This document shows positions 3,232 through 60,749 of a DNA stretch of 64,000 bases, in pieces. The notes beneath the pieces are model-generated. The model ran no database searches, had not been told where the DNA came from, and saw only the letters and a list, made by a program, of their open reading frames with translations. The number at the start of each line of letters is the position of its first letter. Within the stretch, counting starts at the first letter, position 1. Source of the DNA: an uncultured Methanosarcinaceae archaeon (GTDB lineage Archaea > Halobacteriota > Methanosarcinia > Methanosarcinales > Methanosarcinaceae); NCBI GenBank assembly GCA_963833425.1, contig CAWHXP010000003.1, positions 128,001 through 192,000 of the forward strand. Direction: 5' to 3'. Made by a program: the position numbers and the translations under genes.

Positions 3232-4860
3232 ATGAAAGCTTCTGATCTTTTCGGCGCCCAACTCAAAGAAGAAGGCACATAATATATTTTTGAACTGCCA
3301 GGAGAAGAAAATCTGGACTTTCTAGAGTCATTGAGAATTTCAGAAATCAAACTAAGAGTAACAAGGCATGAACATGCTGCAGCTTTTATGGCCACAACCT
3401 ACTGAAGACTGACAGTAAAACCAGGGATTTGTTTTTCAATTCTGAGATCAGGAGCTACTAACCTGGTCACTGGCGTTGCCCAGGCACAGCATGTAGGTGC
3501 TCCTTTTATATCTATCTCCGGTTAGAAGGCACTGAATAACAACTGGCAGGGTCGTTTCCAGTTGTAGACGTTGCCAGGATGATGAAGCCACTCTGCAAAA
3601 ATTCCTTTGCAATAACTGATCCAGGAATGATTCCTACAGTAATCCGAAATGCCTTCAAACATGCAGAATCTGAAAGGCCAGGAGCTGTGCATATAGAACT
3701 CCCGGGAGATGTAGCTTAAGAAGAAACTGATGCAGTAGTACAAAAGAGAAGCTAAATAGGATTCTTACCCGAATTTAGAGGCCGTGGAGAAAGGTGCTTC
3801 TATGATCCGTGAAGCTAAAAATCCCTTGATAATGGTTTCTTCAGGAGCTAACAGAAAAGGAGTCGCTGAAGAGCTTGGGAACTTTGCCACAAAAACAGGC
3901 ATCTATCTGGTGCATACCCAGATGGGGAAAAGTGTTGTTCCGATGGCTGCATTTACAGTCTCTTTGCGATCGGAATCCATTCCAGAGATCATATCGACTG
4001 TGGAATCGATGGATCTGATGTGATAATCACCGTGGGGTACAACATTGCTGAATATCCTCCCTGTCTGTGGAATGGAAAACTGGATAAAAAGATCATAAAT
4101 TTAGATTTCGTGGGATATGTGCCTGAAAGATACTTTAACCCTACAGTAAAGATCATCGGAGGTGTCACCTCTTCAATCAGAGAACTTGCTGCAAATATTC
4201 AGGAGAAAAGGGAACTCCCTTTCTTTGAGAAGACCAGATATTTCATTGAGAAAAAAATAAATGCTACCCACCCCAAAATATCCTCCTTTGCCACAATCAG
4301 TAGTACACAGTGTCAGAAAAGTGTTCGGAAAGGAAGATATAATCATATTGAACAATGGAATTTATAAGCTGTGGTTTCCCCGCCTTTACAAGACATACGC
4401 CCTAAACACTGTACTTCTTGACAATGCCCCTGCAGTTATTGGAGGAGGCTCTCTGCAGGAATTACCACAAAACTTCTTCATCCTGAACGCCGAGTGCTTG
4501 CAATCTGCGGGAACCGGGGCTTTATGATAAATTGCCAGTAGCTTGAGACTGCAAAGTGTTATGGAATTCCTGTAGTTGTTCTTATTCTTAATGATAATGC
4601 CTTTGGTTTTATCAAATGGGAGCAGAAAAAGAAGCACTTTGAGGATTTTGGATTGGACTATGGAAATCCTGATTTTGCTCTTTTTGCGGAGACTTTTGGG
4701 GCTGCAGGCTTTAAGGTCAGATAAAGTGATAAACTTGCAGAAATTTTGGATATATCTTTTTCCTTAAATAAGTAGCTGTTATTGAATGCCCTATCGATTA
4801 TTCAGCAAATTATGATACCTTGTCGATAGAACTGAGAAACCTTATATGTGAATTCTTACC
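3232..4860 (+). pseudogene. Acetolactate synthase large subunit-like TPP enzyme, multiple stops and frameshifts
   Basis: Fragments MKASDLF..LKEEG, LPGEENLDFLESL, TRHEHAAAFMA, GATNLVTGVAQA, IITVGY, LDNG-like IILNNGIYKLWF, and ILNDNAFGFIKWEQ spread over several frames. Confidence 0.9.
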
Positions 4861-5441
4861 CTTTCTCCGCAGATATACACAAAAATTCCGTCTATTTTCT
4901 CAAGATGAAGTAGCTTAAAAATTAATCCAACTTTCAATGAATAAATAATGGCCAAATAGATAAACATATTCATAAACATGAATCATATAACTTTTTTATC
5001 CAGTTATTTAGTAATCCTGGGAGCAGAAGCTCTGAGATTTATCCTATTCTCAAGGTAGTAATAATTTTATCTAACCTCTAGGTAGAGACATCTTGTAGAT
5101 CAGATTCAGCTACAGTAGTTGAGATAGCCTTTAGATTCTCGAATACCAGATATATCATCTCAAAAGGGGATTCACATAATTGAGGCTTAAATAACACTGG
5201 TTTTCCGCTTTATAATCTTTGCCGTAAAAATCAACACGTGTAGATGAATAAAATATGTTTATTAATACATACATAAAGTATTTTCACTGATTTCAAACTA
5301 GAGATGAATCACAAAAAGCACGGAAACACAAGAGTAAGTATACCTGTGAACAATTTTTCCAAGTTTCCTGTGGTTATAAAATTTTCAGTGGCTTTAGTTA
5401 AGTAATTAAGTTAGAACTATACTTTATTCTTAAAAATGCAT

Positions 5442-6554
5442 TTAATTCGAATACTTACTAGACCTTTGAGTAATAATTGTGAGTATATCTTCATCCTGCA
5501 TTCTGTGATCGAGTCCTACTCGCTGTCCGGGATGCTTTGCGGAAGTACCCCATATCAGAGCATAACGGAATTTCCTTCGAAAATCTCTATGCAAGCGATC
5601 ACAGATCTTACCTATATTTGTTCCGCTCATAATTATCAGTGGTTCTTCAACATCTGCGAGCTGGCCCTGCGGTTTTAAATAGACTCGAATGAAACCAAGA
5701 CGATCATAAATTGCATCTTTGAGGGTTTCTATGTTGATTCCTTCATGAGCCGATATGAAGATTGAATTCGGGTATATATTTCTACATTCCTCAATCAGTT
5801 GGGGATAGGCCAAATCAACCTTGTTAACAACTATTAGCGCCCTTACATAACTCCTGTTGTTAAGGACGACATCAATAAGCTGGTCAACTGTTATATTTTC
5901 TCTTATAAGTACATTGGCATTATGAATCTTGTACTCATCCAGTACAGCTTTGATAGTTTCCTCATCCAGGTCAAGTTCAATAGTCGAGTTGATCTCGATT
6001 CCCCCTCTATCTTTCTTCTTTATAATCACATCAGGGATCTCTTCGTCAACACGAATTCCTGCCTGGTATAGTTCGTCCATGAGTACTTCATAATGCTTGG
6101 GTTGGAATACATCGAGCAAAAATATAACCATATCTGAATTCCGGATAACAGAAATGACTTCCTTTCCTCGTCCACGTCCAGAAGATGCACCTTTCACAAG
6201 TCCGGGAACGTCCAGGAACTGGATTGTTGCTCCTTTATGCTCGAGAACTCCTGGGACAACTGTAAGGGTGGTAAAGTCGTATGTACCAACTTCTGACTTG
6301 GCATCCGTGAGTTTGTTAAGAAGCGTGGATTTCCCTACTGATGGGAAACCCACAAGGGTCACAGTTCCATCTCCAGATTTTCTGATTGAGTATCCATCCC
6401 CTCCACCCTTTGAAGATGCTTTTTTTTCCACCTCGTCTCGCAAGCGAGCTATTTTAGCTTTCAACCTTCCGATATGATGGGAAGTTGCCTTGTTGTACTG
6501 CGTCTTGCGAATTTCATCTTCTACTTCCTGTATTTGCTCCTGTATACTGCTCAT
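5442..6554 (-). CDS. DRG/OBG-family GTP-binding protein with C-terminal TGS domain
   Basis: GFPSVGKST (G1), YDFTT (G2), DVPG (G3), NKVD (G4), TQYNKAT N-terminus. Confidence 0.95.
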   Translation of the reverse strand: MSSIQEQIQEVEDEIRKTQYNKATSHHIGRLKAKIARLRDEVEKKASSKGGGDGYSIRKSGDGTVTLVGFPSVGKSTLLNKLTDAKSEVGTYDFTTLTVVPGVLEHKGATIQFLDVPGLVKGASSGRGRGKEVISVIRNSDMVIFLLDVFQPKHYEVLMDELYQAGIRVDEEIPDVIIKKKDRGGIEINSTIELDLDEETIKAVLDEYKIHNANVLIRENITVDQLIDVVLNNRSYVRALIVVNKVDLAYPQLIEECRNIYPNSIFISAHEGINIETLKDAIYDRLGFIRVYLKPQGQLADVEEPLIIMSGTNIGKICDRLHRDFRRKFRYALIWGTSAKHPGQRVGLDHRMQDEDILTIITQRSSKYSN

Positions 6555-41570: not shown

Positions 41571-41600
41571 TAAACCTGCATAAGTACCGCTGGAAACCCT

Positions 41601-42220
41601 AAAACCAGCCATAGAGAAATAAGGAATCTTTTCAAAACTTGTGTTCTTGGTGTTCAGTATGGACTTGGTGCAGAGGCTCTTGCATTAAAAATTAATAAAT
41701 CAACCCCATGTGCAAGGGAACTTTTGAGCCATCATAAGCGTTTATAAAAAAATTTGGATATGGGGTAATAGCGAATGGACTCAAGCGTGCCTTAGGAGAA
41801 CGATCGATACCTGTTTCAAATGGCGAATGGCTGTAAAAGGCCCCTGTAGAGAGGAATTGTTAACTGTAAGAAACTCTCCTGTTCAAGCAACAGGAGAAGA
41901 GATCTAAGAGTTGCCTGTTTTCGTCTCACTGAAAATAATATCAAATTAATTGCGCTGATCCATGATGCAATGATAATTGAATGTGAAGAAGAAACAGCAG
42001 ATGAAGGGATTTAAAAAGCTCGGAAAATAATGTCAGATGCTGCTGAAGTGGTGCTTGGATTAGGAAATCGGTTAAGAACTGAAGCTGAAATCACACTACC
42101 TGGACAGATACATAGTTAAAAAAGCAACTGAAACTTGGCGTTTGATCATGAAGATTTTAGAAGAGATTAAAGAAGAAAGAATATAGGGAAGACTAATTTC
42201 AATAATTTCCGTTTGGTCTA
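41601..42220 (+). pseudogene. Family-A DNA polymerase C-terminal remnant
   Basis: Motif B HREIRNLFKTCVLGVQYGLGAEALA, VRNSPVQATG, motif C LIALIHDAMIIE; several stops and frameshifts. Confidence 0.82.
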
Positions 42221-43201
42221 ATCTTTGAATTTAGCTGCAGAGCAATATTAATTAGCTGCGCAGCTAAATTCTAAAGCCTTCTAATACCTGTTTTACTACT
42301 TATATATCTCTAATATATCTCTTTTTTTCTTCTTGATATTTAAAAATAATATTAAACGGGGTAAAATGATTGTTGAATTCTAAAGATAAAATAAAAGGAT
42401 ATTTCATACCCCAGATGCCTTCAGAATGGATTGTAAAGTTACAGTCCACTTCAGTGGGGCATACATACAGAGTGGCTATGTATATTTGACACTTAAAAGG
42501 GTGAAGAAATCTAAAATTTAGTAGTCACCTTAAAAGGTATAAATTCATTTTTACCTATTCCAGATTGGGCTTGTCCGAAAGCATTGGACGAATTAGAAAA
42601 ATGTGAGATGAGAAAAACGATACGAAAGCGCGGTAAAATTCCCACTGTATCTGTTTTATGCGACAATTGTTATGAAGATTATCCCACTTTAAAAATCCAT
42701 GATAAGTTAGGATCACGCATTTGAAATAAGAATCAAATACTTTAGACATTGTAATGTAATCAAAAAAGAACAAGCACAATAAATGCTGCAGTTTAAATTT
42801 GAAAGTTAGATATATAAGGGTTCTTGCTATTAATTTTTTAGTCCAATTGCATAAATTCTATACCTATTATGTCATTTTTGTAAAATTTGACGTTTTTTTA
42901 TTTTTTAAGTTCCCATGTAAGCGTTACGTTGATATTAGCTTCTAGGCTTGCCTTAGTTATTAACGCATTTCCCTCGCTAGTGAGCTTTAGACCAAATGTT
43001 GACTCTACCTTAGATGGTCTGGTACTCTCAGGAACTTAATTCATTGTGGCTACTATGTATGTCGCCATTTGATGTATTGTATTCATTGCACTATTTAGAG
43101 CTTCAGCCGATTTATCTTCAATCTCTTTCAGTGAAATTATCGCATTAAATGTTATATTTAATTATTTGATGTGACTCTTAGTAAGCTAAAGTGGAAAAGA
43201 G

Positions 43202-43602
43202 GATGAAGTAAATAAGTCTTGAAGCATGCATTTTTCAAGTTATGGATTCTCAGGACATTGTCGGAGGTACGGGTTTTGTCCTCAGTCCAAATTTAGTTGT
43301 AACTTACGCCCATGTTGTGAAAGACTGCAACACCGGAATAGGTGAATTATTAACTTATTCTTCTATCCTAAAAAAACCAGGTTGGAAGCAGAGATATTAC
43401 GTGATGGTTGGAACGAGGAGGAGATGTTGCTTTCCTACGATTGAATAATTTTTCTCTTCTTAATAACCATGTGGCTAAAAAGCTAGGAACATTAGGATCT
43501 ACAAATGAACTCCAACAGGGTTTTCACCTCTATGGCTATCCAGATATAAGAACAGATTTAAAGGGTACTTTGGGTAGGTCAGATCATAGGACAAGTTCAT
43601 AA
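43202..43602 (+). pseudogene. Trypsin-like serine protease domain remnant
   Basis: GGTGFVLSPNLVVTYAHVV, DVAFLRL, FHLYGYP. Confidence 0.75.
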
Positions 43603-43689
43603 AAAACTACTTAATGGGCAGCTATTAGGTCTTTTAGAGTTCTTTTCCGAAACTGAAATTAAGTTACTTCTGGGGTAATACGAGTACAT

Positions 43690-44045
43690 AGGGAGGGAAT
43701 AAGAATTTTACCTTTAACTGGCAATTTGACACCAGTTGTTGGGCCGTTATTACGCACTTTAGAAAGTAATTCTGATCCGGGAACTGCAGTTTCGGTTACA
43801 TTTGATGGGAATTATGCTGTTTCAGATTCCGGTGACGACAAACTAAAGTTTGGGATCTTAAAACAGGAAATGAATACACACATTAAAAGGTCATTCTGAT
43901 CGAGTTTCATCAGTTTCCCTCACCTCCGATGGAAATTTGGCTGTCTCAGCTTCATGGGATAAAACGCTTAAAGTCTGGGATCTTAAAACAAGGGCAGAAG
44001 TCAGAACCTTAGCAGGTCATTTCAATTGTAGAAATGGTTTGAATT
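43690..44045 (+). pseudogene. WD40-repeat remnant of an NLR/APAF-like protein
   Basis: PLTGNLTPVVGPLLRTLE, TLKGHSDRVSSVSLTSDGNLAVSASWDKTLKVWDLKT, RTLAGH. Confidence 0.85.
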
Positions 44046-44070
44046 TTAAATTTTGTAGAGGATGTTAGTA

Positions 44071-44958
44071 ATGCCAAATCAACTGGAAGATGAGGATTGG
44101 GACCTCCTTCTTCGGAGAATCAAGGATAAAAAGTGTACTCCCTTTCTTTGGACCCGGAGCTTGTGCTGGAAAGATCCCTGTTGGTTCCCAGATTGCAAGT
44201 GAATGGGCAAAAAAGTATGACTACCCAATGGAAGACTCTGATGACTTGATAAAGGTGGCTCAGTTTGTGGCTGTGACCAAAGACGCTATGATTCCAAAGG
44301 AGGAGATGTGTAGAAAAATCAATGAACTGTTAAAAAAGTCCCACAAAAATACTTTGAAACTTCTGATGAACTTCATGGAGTGCTAGCCGATCTCCCATTG
44401 CCAGTTTATGTCACCACAAATTACGATGACCTTATGGTGCGAGCTCTTAAAAGCCGTGGCAAAACACCAATCCAGGAAATATGTCGGTGGAATGAATACT
44501 TCAAGCGACGCAAACCAACGTCAGACTATGTTCCTACTCCAGAAAAACCTTTAATATATCACCTCCATGGCTGCTATGAAATGCCAGAGTCGCTGGTTCT
44601 AACAGAGGACTACTATCTGGACTTCCTTGTTGCCACCTCAATGAAACAAAACCTGCTTCCTCCGCGTATTCAGAAGGCATTTACAGATTCATCTCTTCTT
44701 TTTCTAGGCTACAGGATAGCTGATTTGGGTTCCCAAGTTCTTTTCCGGATTCTTGCTGAATACTTAGAAATAGGTGATAGAATGCACTATTCCATGCAGC
44801 TTGTGACAGAGAATGTTCATGAGGCAAAAGAAGAAAGAGCTCAGAAATATCTGGATCGCTATTTTGAGGAGTCTAATATCAAGGTACACTGACACGATTG
44901 CCGTGAATTTGCCGTAGAATTGAGAAAACTATGGGAGGCTTTCAATCGTGGTCCTTGA
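44071..44958 (+). pseudogene. SIR2-like domain protein, frameshifted
   Basis: EDWDLLLRRIKDKKCTPF / GPGAC, VYVTTNYDDLM, YHLHG, LVLTEDYY, LLFLGY; premature TGA at 44890-44892. Confidence 0.85.
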
Positions 44959-46158
44959 ATTCCAGGCTTACGTGGGCCCTCTACCTTTTGAAGAGAAACA
45001 TAAAGCCATTTTTTTCGGGAGACCGTGAAGCTCGAGATCTCCGGTCCTTAGTCATTGCGCATCGTTTGGTTCTCGTCTATGCCCAGCCGGGTGCAGGTAA
45101 GACTTCACTTATCACTGCAGGGCTTATTTATCTCCTGAAAGAAAAACAGTTTGAAGTTCTCCTTGTGGCGAGAGTTAAAGGCACACTTTTTGGAAATATA
45201 AAATCTGAAGAGATCTCAAACATATTTGTCTTTAATACTCTTACAAGCTTGGCTAAAGATGAGCATGATGTTGAGCGCCTTGCTAAAATTAAACTTGTTG
45301 AGTTTATGAAAGAACAGAAGCATATGCATGATGACAATGGTATGGCATTACTCCATGTCATCATCTTCGATCAGTTTGAGGAAATATTCACTTCGTATCA
45401 AGACCGCTGGAAAGATAGAGAGGAATTCTTTGAGCAAGTAAACATTGCTCTGGAAGCAGATCCCCTTTTAAGGGTAGTTTTTGTCATAAGGGAGGATTTC
45501 ATATCTCAGCTAGATCCTTATGAAGATCATCTACCCGAAAAAATGTGGTTGAGTTATCACATAGAGCGCCTGCGCCGTAATGCTGCCCTGCAAGCAATCG
45601 AAAGGCCATTGAGAGATACTAGTCGCTCTTTTGCGGAAGGCGTGGCAAAAAAAACTTGTCGATGATTTGCTGGAGAGTCGAGTTGAGACAATGAACGGCG
45701 AGATCGCTGAGATAACAGGAGAATTCATAGAAGCTGTGCAACTTCAGGTAGTATGCAAGAACATCTGGCGGGATTTACCATTAAATGAAAAACTAATCAC
45801 GTTTCAGCATCTGAAAAAATATGGTAATTTTTAAGAGGTACTTTACAGGTTTTACGAAGAGGCTATAAAGGCAGCGGTAGAGGAGACAGGCATTGATGAG
45901 TAGAGCCTGCGCAGATTTTGCAATGAAAAGTTAATAACGAAAATAAGGATGCGGGGGACGGAGTACCGGGCTCCAGAGTTCACTTGTGGTATTTCCAATC
46001 CAGCTATTGACGTTCTTGAAAGCAGGCACCTTATTAGAGCAGAGTCGCGGGCAAATGCGCTCTGGTATGAACTGGCACACGACATTATACACCGGACCAT
46101 CATGTTTGAGAGGATTTCAATTTTTTATAAGACCTGGAAATACCATTCCATAGCATAA
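44948..46158 (+). pseudogene. STAND NTPase (nSTAND1-like), frameshifted and 3'-truncated
   Basis: YVGPLPFEEKHKAIFFGR, Walker A AQPGAGKTSL, Walker B IIFDQFEEIF, VIREDF, QLQVVC, YELAHD; overlaps the SIR2 stop. Confidence 0.85.
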
Positions 46159-46246
46159 TCTAAGAGTTATTTGCTTTGATATCACTCTTTCTCTGCTTCC
46201 TTTCTCTACCTTACCAACTGGGATTCCAAAGATGTTTGATGCAGTC

Positions 46247-46540
46247 AACATTATGAAGGAAAAATTATCTCATTAAATGTAAGATGGTACCTAAAATATT
46301 CATTGAGCTATAAAAATTTAGAGGAGATGATGGCAGAAAGAGGAATAAAAGTTGATCACACTACTATAATTAGATGGGTACATCGATATTCTTCTGAGAT
46401 GGAAAAGAAGGTGCTTAGACATTTAAAGCCAACTAATGACTCTTGGAGAGTGGACGAAACCTGCATCAAAGTAAAAGGTGAATGAAAATATCTTTATCGT
46501 GCAGTTGATTCAGCTGGGAATACAGTTGAATTTATGCTAA
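46247..46540 (+). mobile_element. IS6-family transposase fragment
   Basis: HYEGKII, WYLKYSLSYKNLEEMMAERGIKVDHTTIIRWV, SWRVDETCIKVKGE*KYLYRAVDS. Confidence 0.88.
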
Positions 46541-49253: not shown

Positions 49254-50385
49254 GAGGATTTCGATAAACTTCGGATTTTATTTCTTAGCAGTAATTTCTC
49301 AGATCTTCCCCTCAATTTCTCTATTTAATCCCTCTTTTTGGCTCTACTATTCTCAATTCTTTGATTTTAAAGATAGCTTCCGCTATCTTCAATATACTTT
49401 TTTTATTTCCAATGTCCTCAATTGATGGAGATTATAACAAAAAGCCGTACACAACATTTTTAGATTTACTCTTTTAACAGTAGTAACAAAAACTCTTCCT
49501 GCTTTGAAAATTTCTTTCGTTACTGAATAAACTCTTTCCCCTGGGACTCTTTTTGAGCTAATTCTCTTATTTCTTAATATATCCTTTATTCCCAACGTAT
49601 GTCCTTTGACCGCTCTTTTCATTGTTATATTATACCCTTTCGTTTTTGCTCCAAAGTATCCTCTGTCCTTATAAACCACTTCATTTTCCTCTGTCAAATC
49701 TACATACGAATCATGTACTGACGCAGTTGTTGTTTGAATCTTCTGATCAGCTCATAATCTCTGTCTATTATATTATGAAGCTTATATCCAAAGTGAGACT
49801 TACCTCCCTTCTTTGTCCAGGTTCCGTCTCTGTTTCTTCTTGTTTTTGCCTCATCTCTCTGCTTTTGCATGTCATGGATCTGAATGGATAAAAGTAACAT
49901 CCTGAATCAGTCCATGCTTTATCTGGAAACCCAGAGTATCAAGTTGGCTTTGCAACTTTTCCCATATTTTCTTTGAAATGCTCGATAATTCTCTCCCTAA
50001 ATAGCCATACAGTAGTACTGTAAGGTATGTATTCCGGAAATCCAAGGAATTTCCTAAAAGAAATTCGATCTATACACTGTTTGTCAAGTTCAAAATCAGA
50101 GAGCACATGCCATTGTTGTAAAACAAGCATTTTGAACATCACAATGACATCAGTTTCGGATCTCCCTCCTGAAACGGTTTTGTTAATATACATAGACTCA
50201 AGAATAATACGAAACGCTTTCCAATCAATTCATGAATAAATTTCAGCAAGCTTACCTCCAACAGATTCAAGACGTTTATACTCTTCTTTAAGAGCAAAAT
50301 CAGTAAGAGTTTTCATGAATATACATAAATATTGACAAATTTAAAGTCAACCATGCTCATGAGCATGGAGTTTATCGAAATTCTC
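49254..50385 (-). mobile_element. IS5-family element, defective transposase, copy 2
   Basis: Same TIRs as copy 1; TSD TGTA (49250-49253, 50386-50389); retains VYKDRGYFG. Confidence 0.93.
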
Positions 50386-59884: not shown

Positions 59885-60749
59885 GGTTATGTTGCATAAA
59901 ATCATAATATTGAAGCAAAAATTTAGTTTCACAGCAAAGAACATAAAAAAGCAGAATATTTCTCAGATAACATCTAGATTTAGGCAGCTATTCCGAATAA
60001 CTTATTTAAAAAATTGACTTCAGCGAGAACAAATCGATTTAAAGTGTCAACCTATTTTTTTCTTATCATATGCATGATTTCAATTCCTTTTAAAGTCTTA
60101 CTGGCCGTATAAAAAGAGTGAAAGCTTAACATTGGACGAACTATTCGTTTTATAGATCCATGATTCTGTTCAACAATGTTATTCAAATACTTGATTTGTC
60201 GAAGGCTTACATTTTTAGGTAATATTTTTTCAGCTTTAAGTTCATATATAGCAGGTGGATAGGCTGAATTTTTCTCAACAATCATTACCTTTGGAATTTG
60301 ATTATGATTGTAACTCAAAGCTTTCTTAAATAAACGTTTTGCAGCAATTCTATCACGTTTTTCATTTAGCATAAAATCAACTGTATTTCCAGTTGAATCA
60401 ACTGCAAGATACAGATATTTCCATTCACCTTTTACCTTGATGTAGGTTTAGTCCAGTCTCCAAGAGTCATTGGTCGGTTTTAAATATTTATGTATCTTTT
60501 TTTCAATCTCAGGAGAATACTGATGTACCCATCTCATTAGAGTAGTGTGATCAATTTTTTTCCTCTTTCTGCCGTCATTTCCTTTAAATTTCTATAACTA
60601 ACTGGATATTTTAGATACCACCTTACGTATAAATAGGATAATTTCTCCTTCATAATGTTTCCACTTAAAGGCATTAGATAGCATACTATCATTATCTTGA
60701 TTTTCTCTTTATTTATTGTACATTTATGATGAATTTTTGCAACATAACC
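59885..60749 (-). mobile_element. IS6-family element with inactivated transposase
   Basis: TIRs ggttatgttgcataaa / tttttgcaacataacc; ATG 60684 MLSNAFKWKHYEGEII, KYLNNIVEQNHGSIK, GIEIMHMIRK; internal stop and frameshifts. Confidence 0.92.

Follow-up and report, generated by a model that had tools for sequence, protein, structure and literature searches.

Does a row of broken, defence-like genes in a Methanosarcinaceae chromosome descend from a single operon, or from separate immune modules that came to lie side by side? We asked this question for a locus in a 64,000-nucleotide (nt) stretch of DNA from an uncultured Methanosarcinaceae archaeon (GenBank assembly GCA_963833425.1, contig CAWHXP010000003.1, positions 128,001 to 192,000), hereafter called the window; all coordinates are positions in it unless a locus is named. 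Over 43203-46158, four remnants lie in a row on the + strand: a trypsin-like protease, about 2.3 WD40 repeats, a SIR2_2 protein and an nSTAND1 NTPase. An earlier reading made from the letters alone (the sequence-only reading) had placed these four remnants, and had seen in them an ancestral archaeal operon in which two STAND/repeat sensors flanked a free SIR2 effector. Reading frames and Pfam matches confirm the four co-oriented remnants at their coordinates and add a fifth, a Trypco1/Pepco gene, on the - strand. The operon itself is not supported by comparison with related loci. In our judgement the window probably holds the remains of two separate, adjacent STAND-type (NLR-like) immune modules and not of one operon: a Trypco1/trypsin/WD40 set (module A, 42901-44022) and a SIR2-nSTAND1 pair (module B, 44023-46084). 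One of these dead modules is of a known kind, Pepco-protease-STAND, and the other is a widespread and apparently unnamed SIR2 variant.

Five remnants in two probable modules

All stop-free pieces came from a three-frame reading of 43150-46320, and nine of the 15 pieces scanned match no Pfam family at E ≤ 0.1. The remnants are:

42901..43161, - strand: Trypco1 (Pepco) remnant; Pfam PF19493, E 3.9e-11, 43.9 bits (cutoff 24.6) for 42901-43035
43203..43675 (end approximate), + strand: trypsin-like serine protease remnant; weak Trypsin_2 match, relatives P0242, P0243, P0245 and P0246
43735..44022, + strand: WD40 remnant; two repeats and the start of a third (RTLAGH...), with a frameshift near 43874-96
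44071..44958, + strand: SIR2_2 pseudogene; Pfam PF13289, E 6e-24, 85 bits (cutoff 24.5); relatives of ~297 amino acids (aa)
44948..46158, + strand: nSTAND1 NTPase pseudogene; Pfam PF20703, E 4.3e-23, 83 bits (cutoff 27.1) for 44907-45662

The domain calls of the sequence-only reading (protease, WD40, SIR2 and nSTAND) were thus right, with a weak match for Trypsin_2 and Pfam matches for the other three families, and its description of the genes as pseudogenes agrees with the frameshifts, nonsense codons and truncations detailed below. Handles beginning with L denote loci and those beginning with P denote proteins.

A free SIR2 gene paired with an nSTAND1 gene

When read through its breaks, the window SIR2 aligns from the first to the last residue with stand-alone SIR2 proteins of ~297 aa, and it has its own ATG at 44071, so that the free-standing gene proposed earlier is indeed present. 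The SIR2 piece has 1203 homologues of 103-329 aa, typically ~297 aa. The gene is broken by a +1 frameshift near 44149, by a -1 frameshift near 44332-38 (A6 run at 44332-37) and by a TGA at 44890-92 that replaces a nearly invariant Trp; its natural stop is the TGA at 44956-58. It keeps the catalytic motifs TTNYDD and HLHG, both of which are invariant or nearly so in 30 relatives, and a conserved ADWDF has become ADLGS. Against the PDB, the SIR2 profile matches ThsA (7uxt, 6lhx, 8bto), KomC and DSR2; these best solved relatives are defence NADases, in line with the defence-like nature first proposed for the locus. The Asn of TTNYD and the His of HG align with N112 and H152 of ThsA, whose counterparts we take to be the catalytic residues. 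By profile and motifs, the SIR2 is of the defence-NADase kind, and NADase activity is predicted for its intact form.

The GTG of the nSTAND1 gene (44948-50) overlaps the SIR2 stop (TGA 44956-58), as had been noticed from the letters, and the overlap amounts to 11 nt. The N-termini of relatives (V/M-V-P-E-F-Q-A-Y-V-G-P) start at the same place as this GTG. The remnant keeps Walker A (GAGKTS) and Walker B (IIFDQFEE) motifs; it is interrupted by frameshifts near 45022 and in an A8 run (45647-54) and by stops at 45832-34 and 45901-03. Homology to its relatives ends at 46084, at about residue 385 of roughly 1000-1300, and the remnant lacks the transmembrane (TM) segment and the WD40 sensor, which take up about 500-900 aa in relatives. 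Against PF20703, the intact relatives reach 122-141 bits. The nSTAND1 piece has 351 longer homologous proteins. The closest, one of them annotated as from Methanosarcina sp. UBA5, are 66-76% identical, ~800-1200 aa long and equipped with WD40 repeats; the NTPase is their first domain, no effector domain preceding it. A search of the nSTAND1 profile against solved structures returned nothing at E ≤ 0.01.

How general is this pairing? An alignment scan over one genome per species found 383 SIR2 relatives, so that species-representative genomes hold at least that number; the best 80 were kept and 78 loci were examined. The alignment query was needed, as a locus search with the single SIR2 piece found no relatives. 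Twelve of the 78 loci belong to Methanosarcinales or Methanoperedens and 66 come from many bacterial phyla, so that the module is not specifically archaeal; the host groups are rich in Anaerolineae, Acidobacteriota, Planctomycetota and Methanosarcinales. In 69 of the 78 loci, the start of an nSTAND1 gene in the same orientation lies at most 60 bp from the SIR2 stop; in five (L004, L005, L008, L010, L013), the nSTAND1 gene is more than 300 bp away. Two loci (L003, L009) have no nSTAND1 gene despite room downstream, and two others (L035, L072) end too early to judge. Short SIR2/nSTAND1 overlaps of 4-14 nt recur across the loci, and in tblastn searches the nSTAND1 piece matches 76 of the 78.

The upstream remnants behave in another way. 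With tblastn, the three trypsin pieces and the first WD40 piece match none of the 78 SIR2 loci within 10 kb, and the second WD40 piece matches 22 of them, solely in repeat regions of downstream genes. No intact locus with the gene order of the proposed operon was found among these 78, and its two sensors flanking a free SIR2 have no counterpart there. Judging from these loci, the SIR2 gene pairs only with the nSTAND1 gene downstream of it.

Homology at the DNA level draws the same border. In blastn comparisons, the three loci L007 (87% identity), L001 (85%) and L002 (85%) cover the window only from 44023 or 44055 onwards, and all end at 46084. Since DNA homology is limited to this span, the SIR2-nSTAND1 block forms a unit of its own. 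On the left it borders directly on the third WD40 repeat, which is cut there (RTLAGH|...), and on the right it ends 160 bp short of a transposase fragment.

Other arrangements of the same parts were also seen. In one protein of 770 aa (P0026), SIR2 stands where the repeats would be, fused to the C-terminal end of an nSTAND1 NTPase; together with the nSTAND1-WD40 protein P0038, presumably on the same contig, P0026 suggests a sensor/effector pair with two nSTAND1 proteins.

In five loci of Methanosarcinales (L004, L006, L008, L009, L010), a Trypco1/Pepco gene lies directly upstream of SIR2 or of a SIR2-CHAT fusion, as at L006:8952-11596. The fusion has 507-544 aa and joins SIR2_2 to a caspase-like CHAT domain; CHAT also occurs in L002, L003, L005 and L011. 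Downstream of the fusion there is usually another SIR2, or fragments of SIR2, before an nSTAND1-TM-WD40 gene, and in L006 and L004 a trypsin remnant is kept between Trypco1 and SIR2-CHAT. Pepco beside a CHAT protease fused to a NADase looks like an undescribed combination.

Comparison with named systems

We compared the remnants and their intact relatives with the models of PADLOC-DB v2.0.0. No Avs model matches the window pieces (E ≤ 0.1) or the intact nSTAND1 partners of L001, L012 and L015 (E ≤ 1e-3), so that the pair has no full match to an Avs type of this database. The ThsA model matches the window SIR2 piece at 4.4e-15, three intact stand-alone SIR2 proteins at 5.6e-21 to 5.9e-23 and the SIR2-CHAT fusion at 1.7e-16; the PDC-S25, LmuA and Dsr1/2 models give weaker SIR2 matches. 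NCBIfam gave nothing above cutoff, and PADLOC v2 has no model for the SIR2 + nSTAND1 pair.

Avs5 (AVAST type 5, SIR2-STAND) resembles the pair in that a SIR2 (PF13289) NADase serves as the effector of a STAND NTPase whose C-terminal part is made of repeats (PMC12931631, PMC11897194; available text). PaAvs5 is described there as a single polypeptide with an N-terminal SIR2, an nSTAND3 (PF20720) and TPR/Sel1/PPR repeats (PMC12931631). In contrast, SIR2 and nSTAND1 are separate open reading frames (ORFs) in the window and in the 69 loci with adjacent genes. Moreover, the window NTPase matches nSTAND1 at E 4.3e-23 and nSTAND3 (PF20720) only at E 0.0012 and 19 bits, below the cutoff of 27.2, and the partners carry WD40 repeats behind a TM-type segment where Avs5, as far as the available text describes it, carries TPR/Sel1/PPR repeats.

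The best solved-structure matches of the window SIR2 profile belong to Thoeris (ThsA), Kongming (KomC) and DSR2. The match covers only 11-237 of the 478 positions of the ThsA profile, and the SLOG/STALD domain of ThsA is absent here, as is a ThsB/TIR partner; the partner is an nSTAND1 NTPase, and the pair is thus not a Thoeris system.

The nearest likeness is found in operons catalogued by Kaur, Burroughs, Iyer and Aravind (2021, eLife 10:e70394, fig2-data1). The part of this file available to us lists 'TIR+DrHyd-> nSTAND1+TM+BetaPropeller' and 'EACC1-> CASPASE+nSTAND1+TM+BetaPropeller', and contains the string 'nSTAND1+TM' 461 times. Such operons of a free effector share with our pair the PF20703 NTPase, the hydrophobic segment and then a beta-propeller/WD40 or TPR domain. 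Those with TIR+DrHyd follow the same logic, an NAD+-targeting effector being encoded as a separate gene immediately upstream, but their effector is TIR/DrHyd and not SIR2_2. The SIR2 + nSTAND1 pair is an effector-swap variant of these catalogued TIR -> nSTAND1+TM+BetaPropeller operons. In the same part of the file, none of the 8 occurrences of 'SIR2' immediately neighbours nSTAND1, and there is no nSTAND1 entry for Methanosarcina. A search of full-text literature and supplements, which did not extend to eLife supplement file 13, found no description of a SIR2 -> nSTAND1 operon, and the text part of the supplements to a 2026 Nature survey of STAND proteins mentions neither nSTAND, SIR2 nor Methanosarcina.

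A putative membrane segment in the nSTAND1 partners

What the window copy has lost can be seen in its relatives. Among 29 nSTAND1 partner ORFs, 24 have exactly one strongly hydrophobic segment of 19 residues between the NTPase and the repeats (for example, residues 448-466 of L001:10881-14552). In these 24, Lys and Arg total 146 in the 15 residues before the segment and 51 in the 15 residues after it. Because of this single segment and this charge difference, the partners would be single-pass proteins of N-in/C-out topology with the WD40 domain outside the cytoplasm. Five of the 29 have no segment at the threshold of 1.8. Four of them (L012, L025, L045, L047) reach at most 1.45; Pfam identifies L012 as a TPR form, and the sequences of L025 and L045 look TPR-like. 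In the fifth, L011, the segment is weaker (1.36) and resembles those of the other partners in sequence.

We can propose the following working for this kind of module. Module B is the 5′ two kilobases of a conserved two-gene operon, in which the gene for a free SIR2 of ~297 aa, a predicted NADase, is translationally coupled through 11 shared nt to the gene for an nSTAND1 NTPase; intact relatives of the latter carry one hydrophobic membrane-type segment and then a WD40 (or TPR) sensor behind the NTPase. The repeat domain of an intact module would bind a ligand derived from an invader, whereupon the nSTAND1 NTPase might oligomerise. The oligomer would recruit or activate the separately encoded SIR2 in trans, the activated SIR2 would hydrolyse NAD+, and the infected cell, losing its NAD+, would arrest or die. 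Predicted complexes of SIR2 with the nSTAND1 NTPase domain (residues 1-400) scored 0.10, 0.42 and 0.00 in separate runs, no controls having been folded beside them.

Tentatively, we suggest that the free SIR2 + nSTAND1 pair may be a distinct, widespread and unnamed NLR-like immune system of archaea and bacteria, built as a single-pass membrane sensor with its WD40 propeller outside and a cytoplasmic NTPase that would act on a separate NADase, and with a sub-variant in Methanosarcinales that adds Pepco and SIR2-CHAT. If this is true, infection (or another cell) would be sensed at the envelope, in a transmembrane version of the Avs/NLR logic, and the sub-variant would combine NAD+ depletion with protease-gated pore formation.

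The same architecture also suits another function, which we consider unlikely: the intact SIR2 + nSTAND1-TM-WD40 protein pair would be a membrane receptor for cell-cell or environmental signals, acting in regulated cell death or kin recognition of microbes that form aggregates, for example, with SIR2 as its output, and would not be antiviral. The single hydrophobic segment and the Lys and Arg totals of the 24 partners, which place the repeats outside the cytoplasm, fit such a receptor, as does the abundance of Anaerolineae, Acidobacteriota, Planctomycetota and Methanosarcinales among the hosts. Kaur et al. (2020, PMC7159879; available text) tie related conflict systems to a multicellular habit, including that of Methanosarcina mazei. 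However, the closest solved relatives of the SIR2 are all phage-defence NADases, and the variable gene content, tandem paralogues and decay mediated by insertion sequences (IS) are typical of defence loci.

It is in the intact relatives, a two-gene SIR2 + nSTAND1-TM-WD40/TPR module found across archaea and many bacterial phyla, that the interest of the immune reading lies. To our knowledge, the STAND defences characterised so far (Avs1-5, Avs7) are single proteins of the cytosol to which the effector is fused. A version with a split effector that probably spans the membrane bears on how a STAND oligomer could activate its effector in trans, and on whether prokaryotic NLR-like sensors look outward. 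The question is testable, since a cultured archaeon, Methanosarcina hadiensis TD41E1-1, and bacteria possess intact copies. The pair of M. hadiensis lies at about 1,040,066-1,044,911 of NZ_CP136241.1 (L011:9974-14819), and one bacterial pair is that of a Geomonas MAG (L015).

The upstream remnants: Trypco1, trypsin and WD40

The Trypco1 remnant keeps about 70 C-terminal residues and has an in-frame stop at 43036-38; its 5′ part is gone. Residues 38-107 of the Trypco1 protein of L006 align to 43128-42910 (tblastn, E 1e-4), and the match runs on to 43161 past one stop. This lost end would run across the trypsin start on the opposite strand, so that a rearrangement breakpoint lies between 43161 and 43203.

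For the protease, the Pfam Trypsin_2 match (E 5.8e-4, 21 bits) stays below the cutoff of 27.6, and identification comes from relatives. A search of 1.84 billion representative proteins with the first trypsin piece (68 aa) gave eight matches: four true relatives (P0242, P0243, P0245, P0246), the protein of the window itself, and three (P0244, P0247, P0248) that were dropped, since they look like spurious matches caused by repeats or low complexity. A search for longer homologous proteins with the second trypsin piece (43405-43599) found none at E ≤ 10. The four relatives align in three frames over 43203-43566; P0245 is 68% identical over the first 50 aa and reaches E 4e-24 when the pieces are joined. 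The remnant has a stop at codon 3 (43209-11), an ATA where relatives have a Met (the second Met codon) and at least three frameshifts, with changes of frame near 43350-55, 43421-23 and 43566. A His motif (TYAHVV) and an Asp motif (DVAFLRL) can be recognised; the Ser motif could not be assigned with confidence.

The WD40 repeats match Pfam at E 3.6e-12 for 43874-44065 and are seen in the DNA as an internal direct repeat of 116 bp (43751-43865 against 43875-43990, 71.6% identical). No evidence was found for the 'APAF-like linker' of the sequence-only reading, and the piece 43663-43896 matches no Pfam family. The repeats break off at ~44022, the point from which the window is homologous to the SIR2 leader of related loci. 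We also considered whether they could be the lost C-terminus of the downstream nSTAND1 protein, or the tail of an upstream tandem nSTAND1-WD40 gene, and rejected both ideas as unlikely. The repeats (GHSDRVSSVSLTSDG...DKTLKVWDL) are unlike those of the closest nSTAND1 partners (NHDGPVNNVVFSPDGKY...), the conserved tail (...EEWKKYMGDEPYHKTFPNLP) is absent, and identity to the protein P0015 is just 37-42% over 33-40 aa.

Relatives of the trypsin piece make up the N-terminal domains of larger proteins. In P0245, a fragment of 276 aa, the protease leads into a P-loop that matches NB-ARC weakly (E 0.004); L023 encodes a Trypsin_2-HEAT-KAP_NTPase protein, and P0242 is a tandem double protease. When P0245 was compared with plasmids by tblastn, 18 records matched, 15 of them from Streptomyces; the plasmid pSLUN1 encodes an intact Trypsin_2-nSTAND1-WD40 protein of 1416 aa with a co-oriented Trypco1 gene (118 aa) directly upstream. 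Matches of P0245 to protein clusters combine Trypsin_2 with nSTAND1, NACHT, iSTAND or EAD9; all score below 0.9 and serve as leads only. P0245 also matches Avs1b (NCBIfam NF041810) at 23 bits and E 9e-6, far from the cutoff of 1500, so that it is not assigned to AVAST type 1.

Kaur et al. (2020, PMC7159879; available text) gave the names Trypco1/2 to genes found together with trypsin-like peptidases in conflict systems. According to the available text of a 2025 preprint of the Gao lab (PMC12642450), Pepco (= Trypco1/2) is a beta-barrel pore toxin activated through cleavage by its associated protease, and Pepco-protease modules are often fused to STAND sensors. The window shows the same neighbourhood, with Trypco1 (42901-43035, - strand) above its Pfam cutoff next to a trypsin-like protease (from 43203, + strand) whose relatives are the N-termini of STAND or KAP NTPases that bear repeat sensors. 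It departs from the known modules in that Trypco1 is inverted and truncated, both genes are broken and divergently oriented (they are co-oriented in L006 and pSLUN1), and WD40 repeats follow the protease with no NTPase remains, where the relatives carry an NB-ARC-like P-loop, a KAP or an nSTAND1 domain.

By their domains, the Trypco1, trypsin and WD40 pieces would fit this known kind of module, Pepco with a protease-STAND-WD40 protein, from which the NTPase has been deleted. Module A would then be what is left of a Trypco1/Pepco gene and of a gene for a trypsin-protease-STAND-WD40 protein. In such a module, a sensor-linked protease would cut Pepco into an active membrane pore; in the copy of the window, the NTPase and most repeats would have been lost, and Trypco1 is inverted and cut at its 5′ end. 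The large internal deletion between protease and WD40 proposed from the letters is thus plausible, as the trypsin relatives run into NTPases. It is unproven, because no full-length orthologue of the window trypsin gene was retrieved and no trace of an NTPase was found between the protease and the WD40 repeats. Compared with the window by tblastn, the pSLUN1 Trypsin-nSTAND1-WD40 protein gave nothing significant in 43200-44070, and L079 gave no significant match to the window.

Could the four + strand remnants still come from one ancestral operon, with two STAND/repeat sensors sharing the free SIR2 effector between them? We think this quite improbable. The pieces are co-oriented and contiguous, and in L004 and L006 Trypco1 and a trypsin remnant stand just upstream of a SIR2-CHAT gene that precedes nSTAND1-WD40. 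However, the L006 trypsin is only 30-35% identical to the window-type relatives and is followed by neither STAND nor WD40, and, as described above, the window trypsin pieces and first WD40 piece are matched in none of the 78 SIR2 loci. Furthermore, 44023, the left end of the block of DNA homology, falls within the presumed third WD40 repeat, and the inverted Trypco1 gene overlaps the beginning of the trypsin gene.

Several points weigh against our reading of two adjacent modules. That trypsin and WD40 were once one gene is suggested by the architecture of distant relatives, and pSLUN1 is ~30% identical to P0245. Trypco1 lies on the strand opposite to the trypsin remnant, whereas the two genes are co-oriented in L006 and pSLUN1. 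The position of Trypco1/trypsin upstream of SIR2(-CHAT) in Methanosarcinales may reflect a looser link between protease/Pepco and SIR2 modules. We found in the literature no experiment on any member of a SIR2 + nSTAND1 pair. Finally, two frameshifts are located in homopolymer runs, where a sequencing error is conceivable.

Decay of the locus and its surroundings

The decay is real and not an assembly artefact. Indeed, 21 of the 29 other larger ORFs of the window have clean Pfam matches, several of them full-length (PvlArgDC, CobD, SecD/F and an aconitase-family protein), and the breaks include four nonsense codons and two truncations. It is very improbable that the genes are intact in the organism, the breaks being sequencing or assembly errors in a live defence island: two frameshifts do fall in A-runs (A6 44332-37 and A8 45647-54) and the closest locus, L007, which comes from a metagenome-assembled genome (MAG), is fragmented too, but four in-frame stops (43209, 44890, 45832, 45901), a lost start codon, the cut of nSTAND1 at 46084 with no WD40 anywhere downstream, the absent NTPase of module A and the intact housekeeping ORFs elsewhere in the window all speak against it. 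Given the frameshifts, nonsense codons, deletions and nearby transposase fragment, both modules are now non-functional. The window copy, inactive as it is, records how defence modules pile up side by side and then decay in a Methanosarcinaceae chromosome.

One further feature adjoins module B:

46247..46540, + strand: transposase fragment, 160 bp past the nSTAND1 truncation; weak Pfam IS66/HTH matches only

By eye it looks IS6-like, and the window holds a copy of it that is 85% identical (60366-60659, - strand). Outside the remnants studied, the region of 41-51 kb has no intact gene of 120 aa or more. Short ORFs at 41574-42119 (+ strand) appeared polymerase-like by eye; this idea was dropped as unsupported, no Pfam family being matched at E ≤ 0.01. 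Fragments of an IS5-type transposase, in at least three ORFs, lie at 49392-50229 (- strand; DUF772 at E 3.9e-15, DDE_Tnp_1 weak).

A similar picture is seen elsewhere in the family. A contig of a Methanosarcinaceae MAG (L002:459-11376) carries three tandem SIR2 modules. A transposase-like ORF (4665-5483) splits the first of its nSTAND1-WD40 genes, the WD40 tail of which is left at 5953-6402; the contig shows the same pattern of pile-up and decay as the window.

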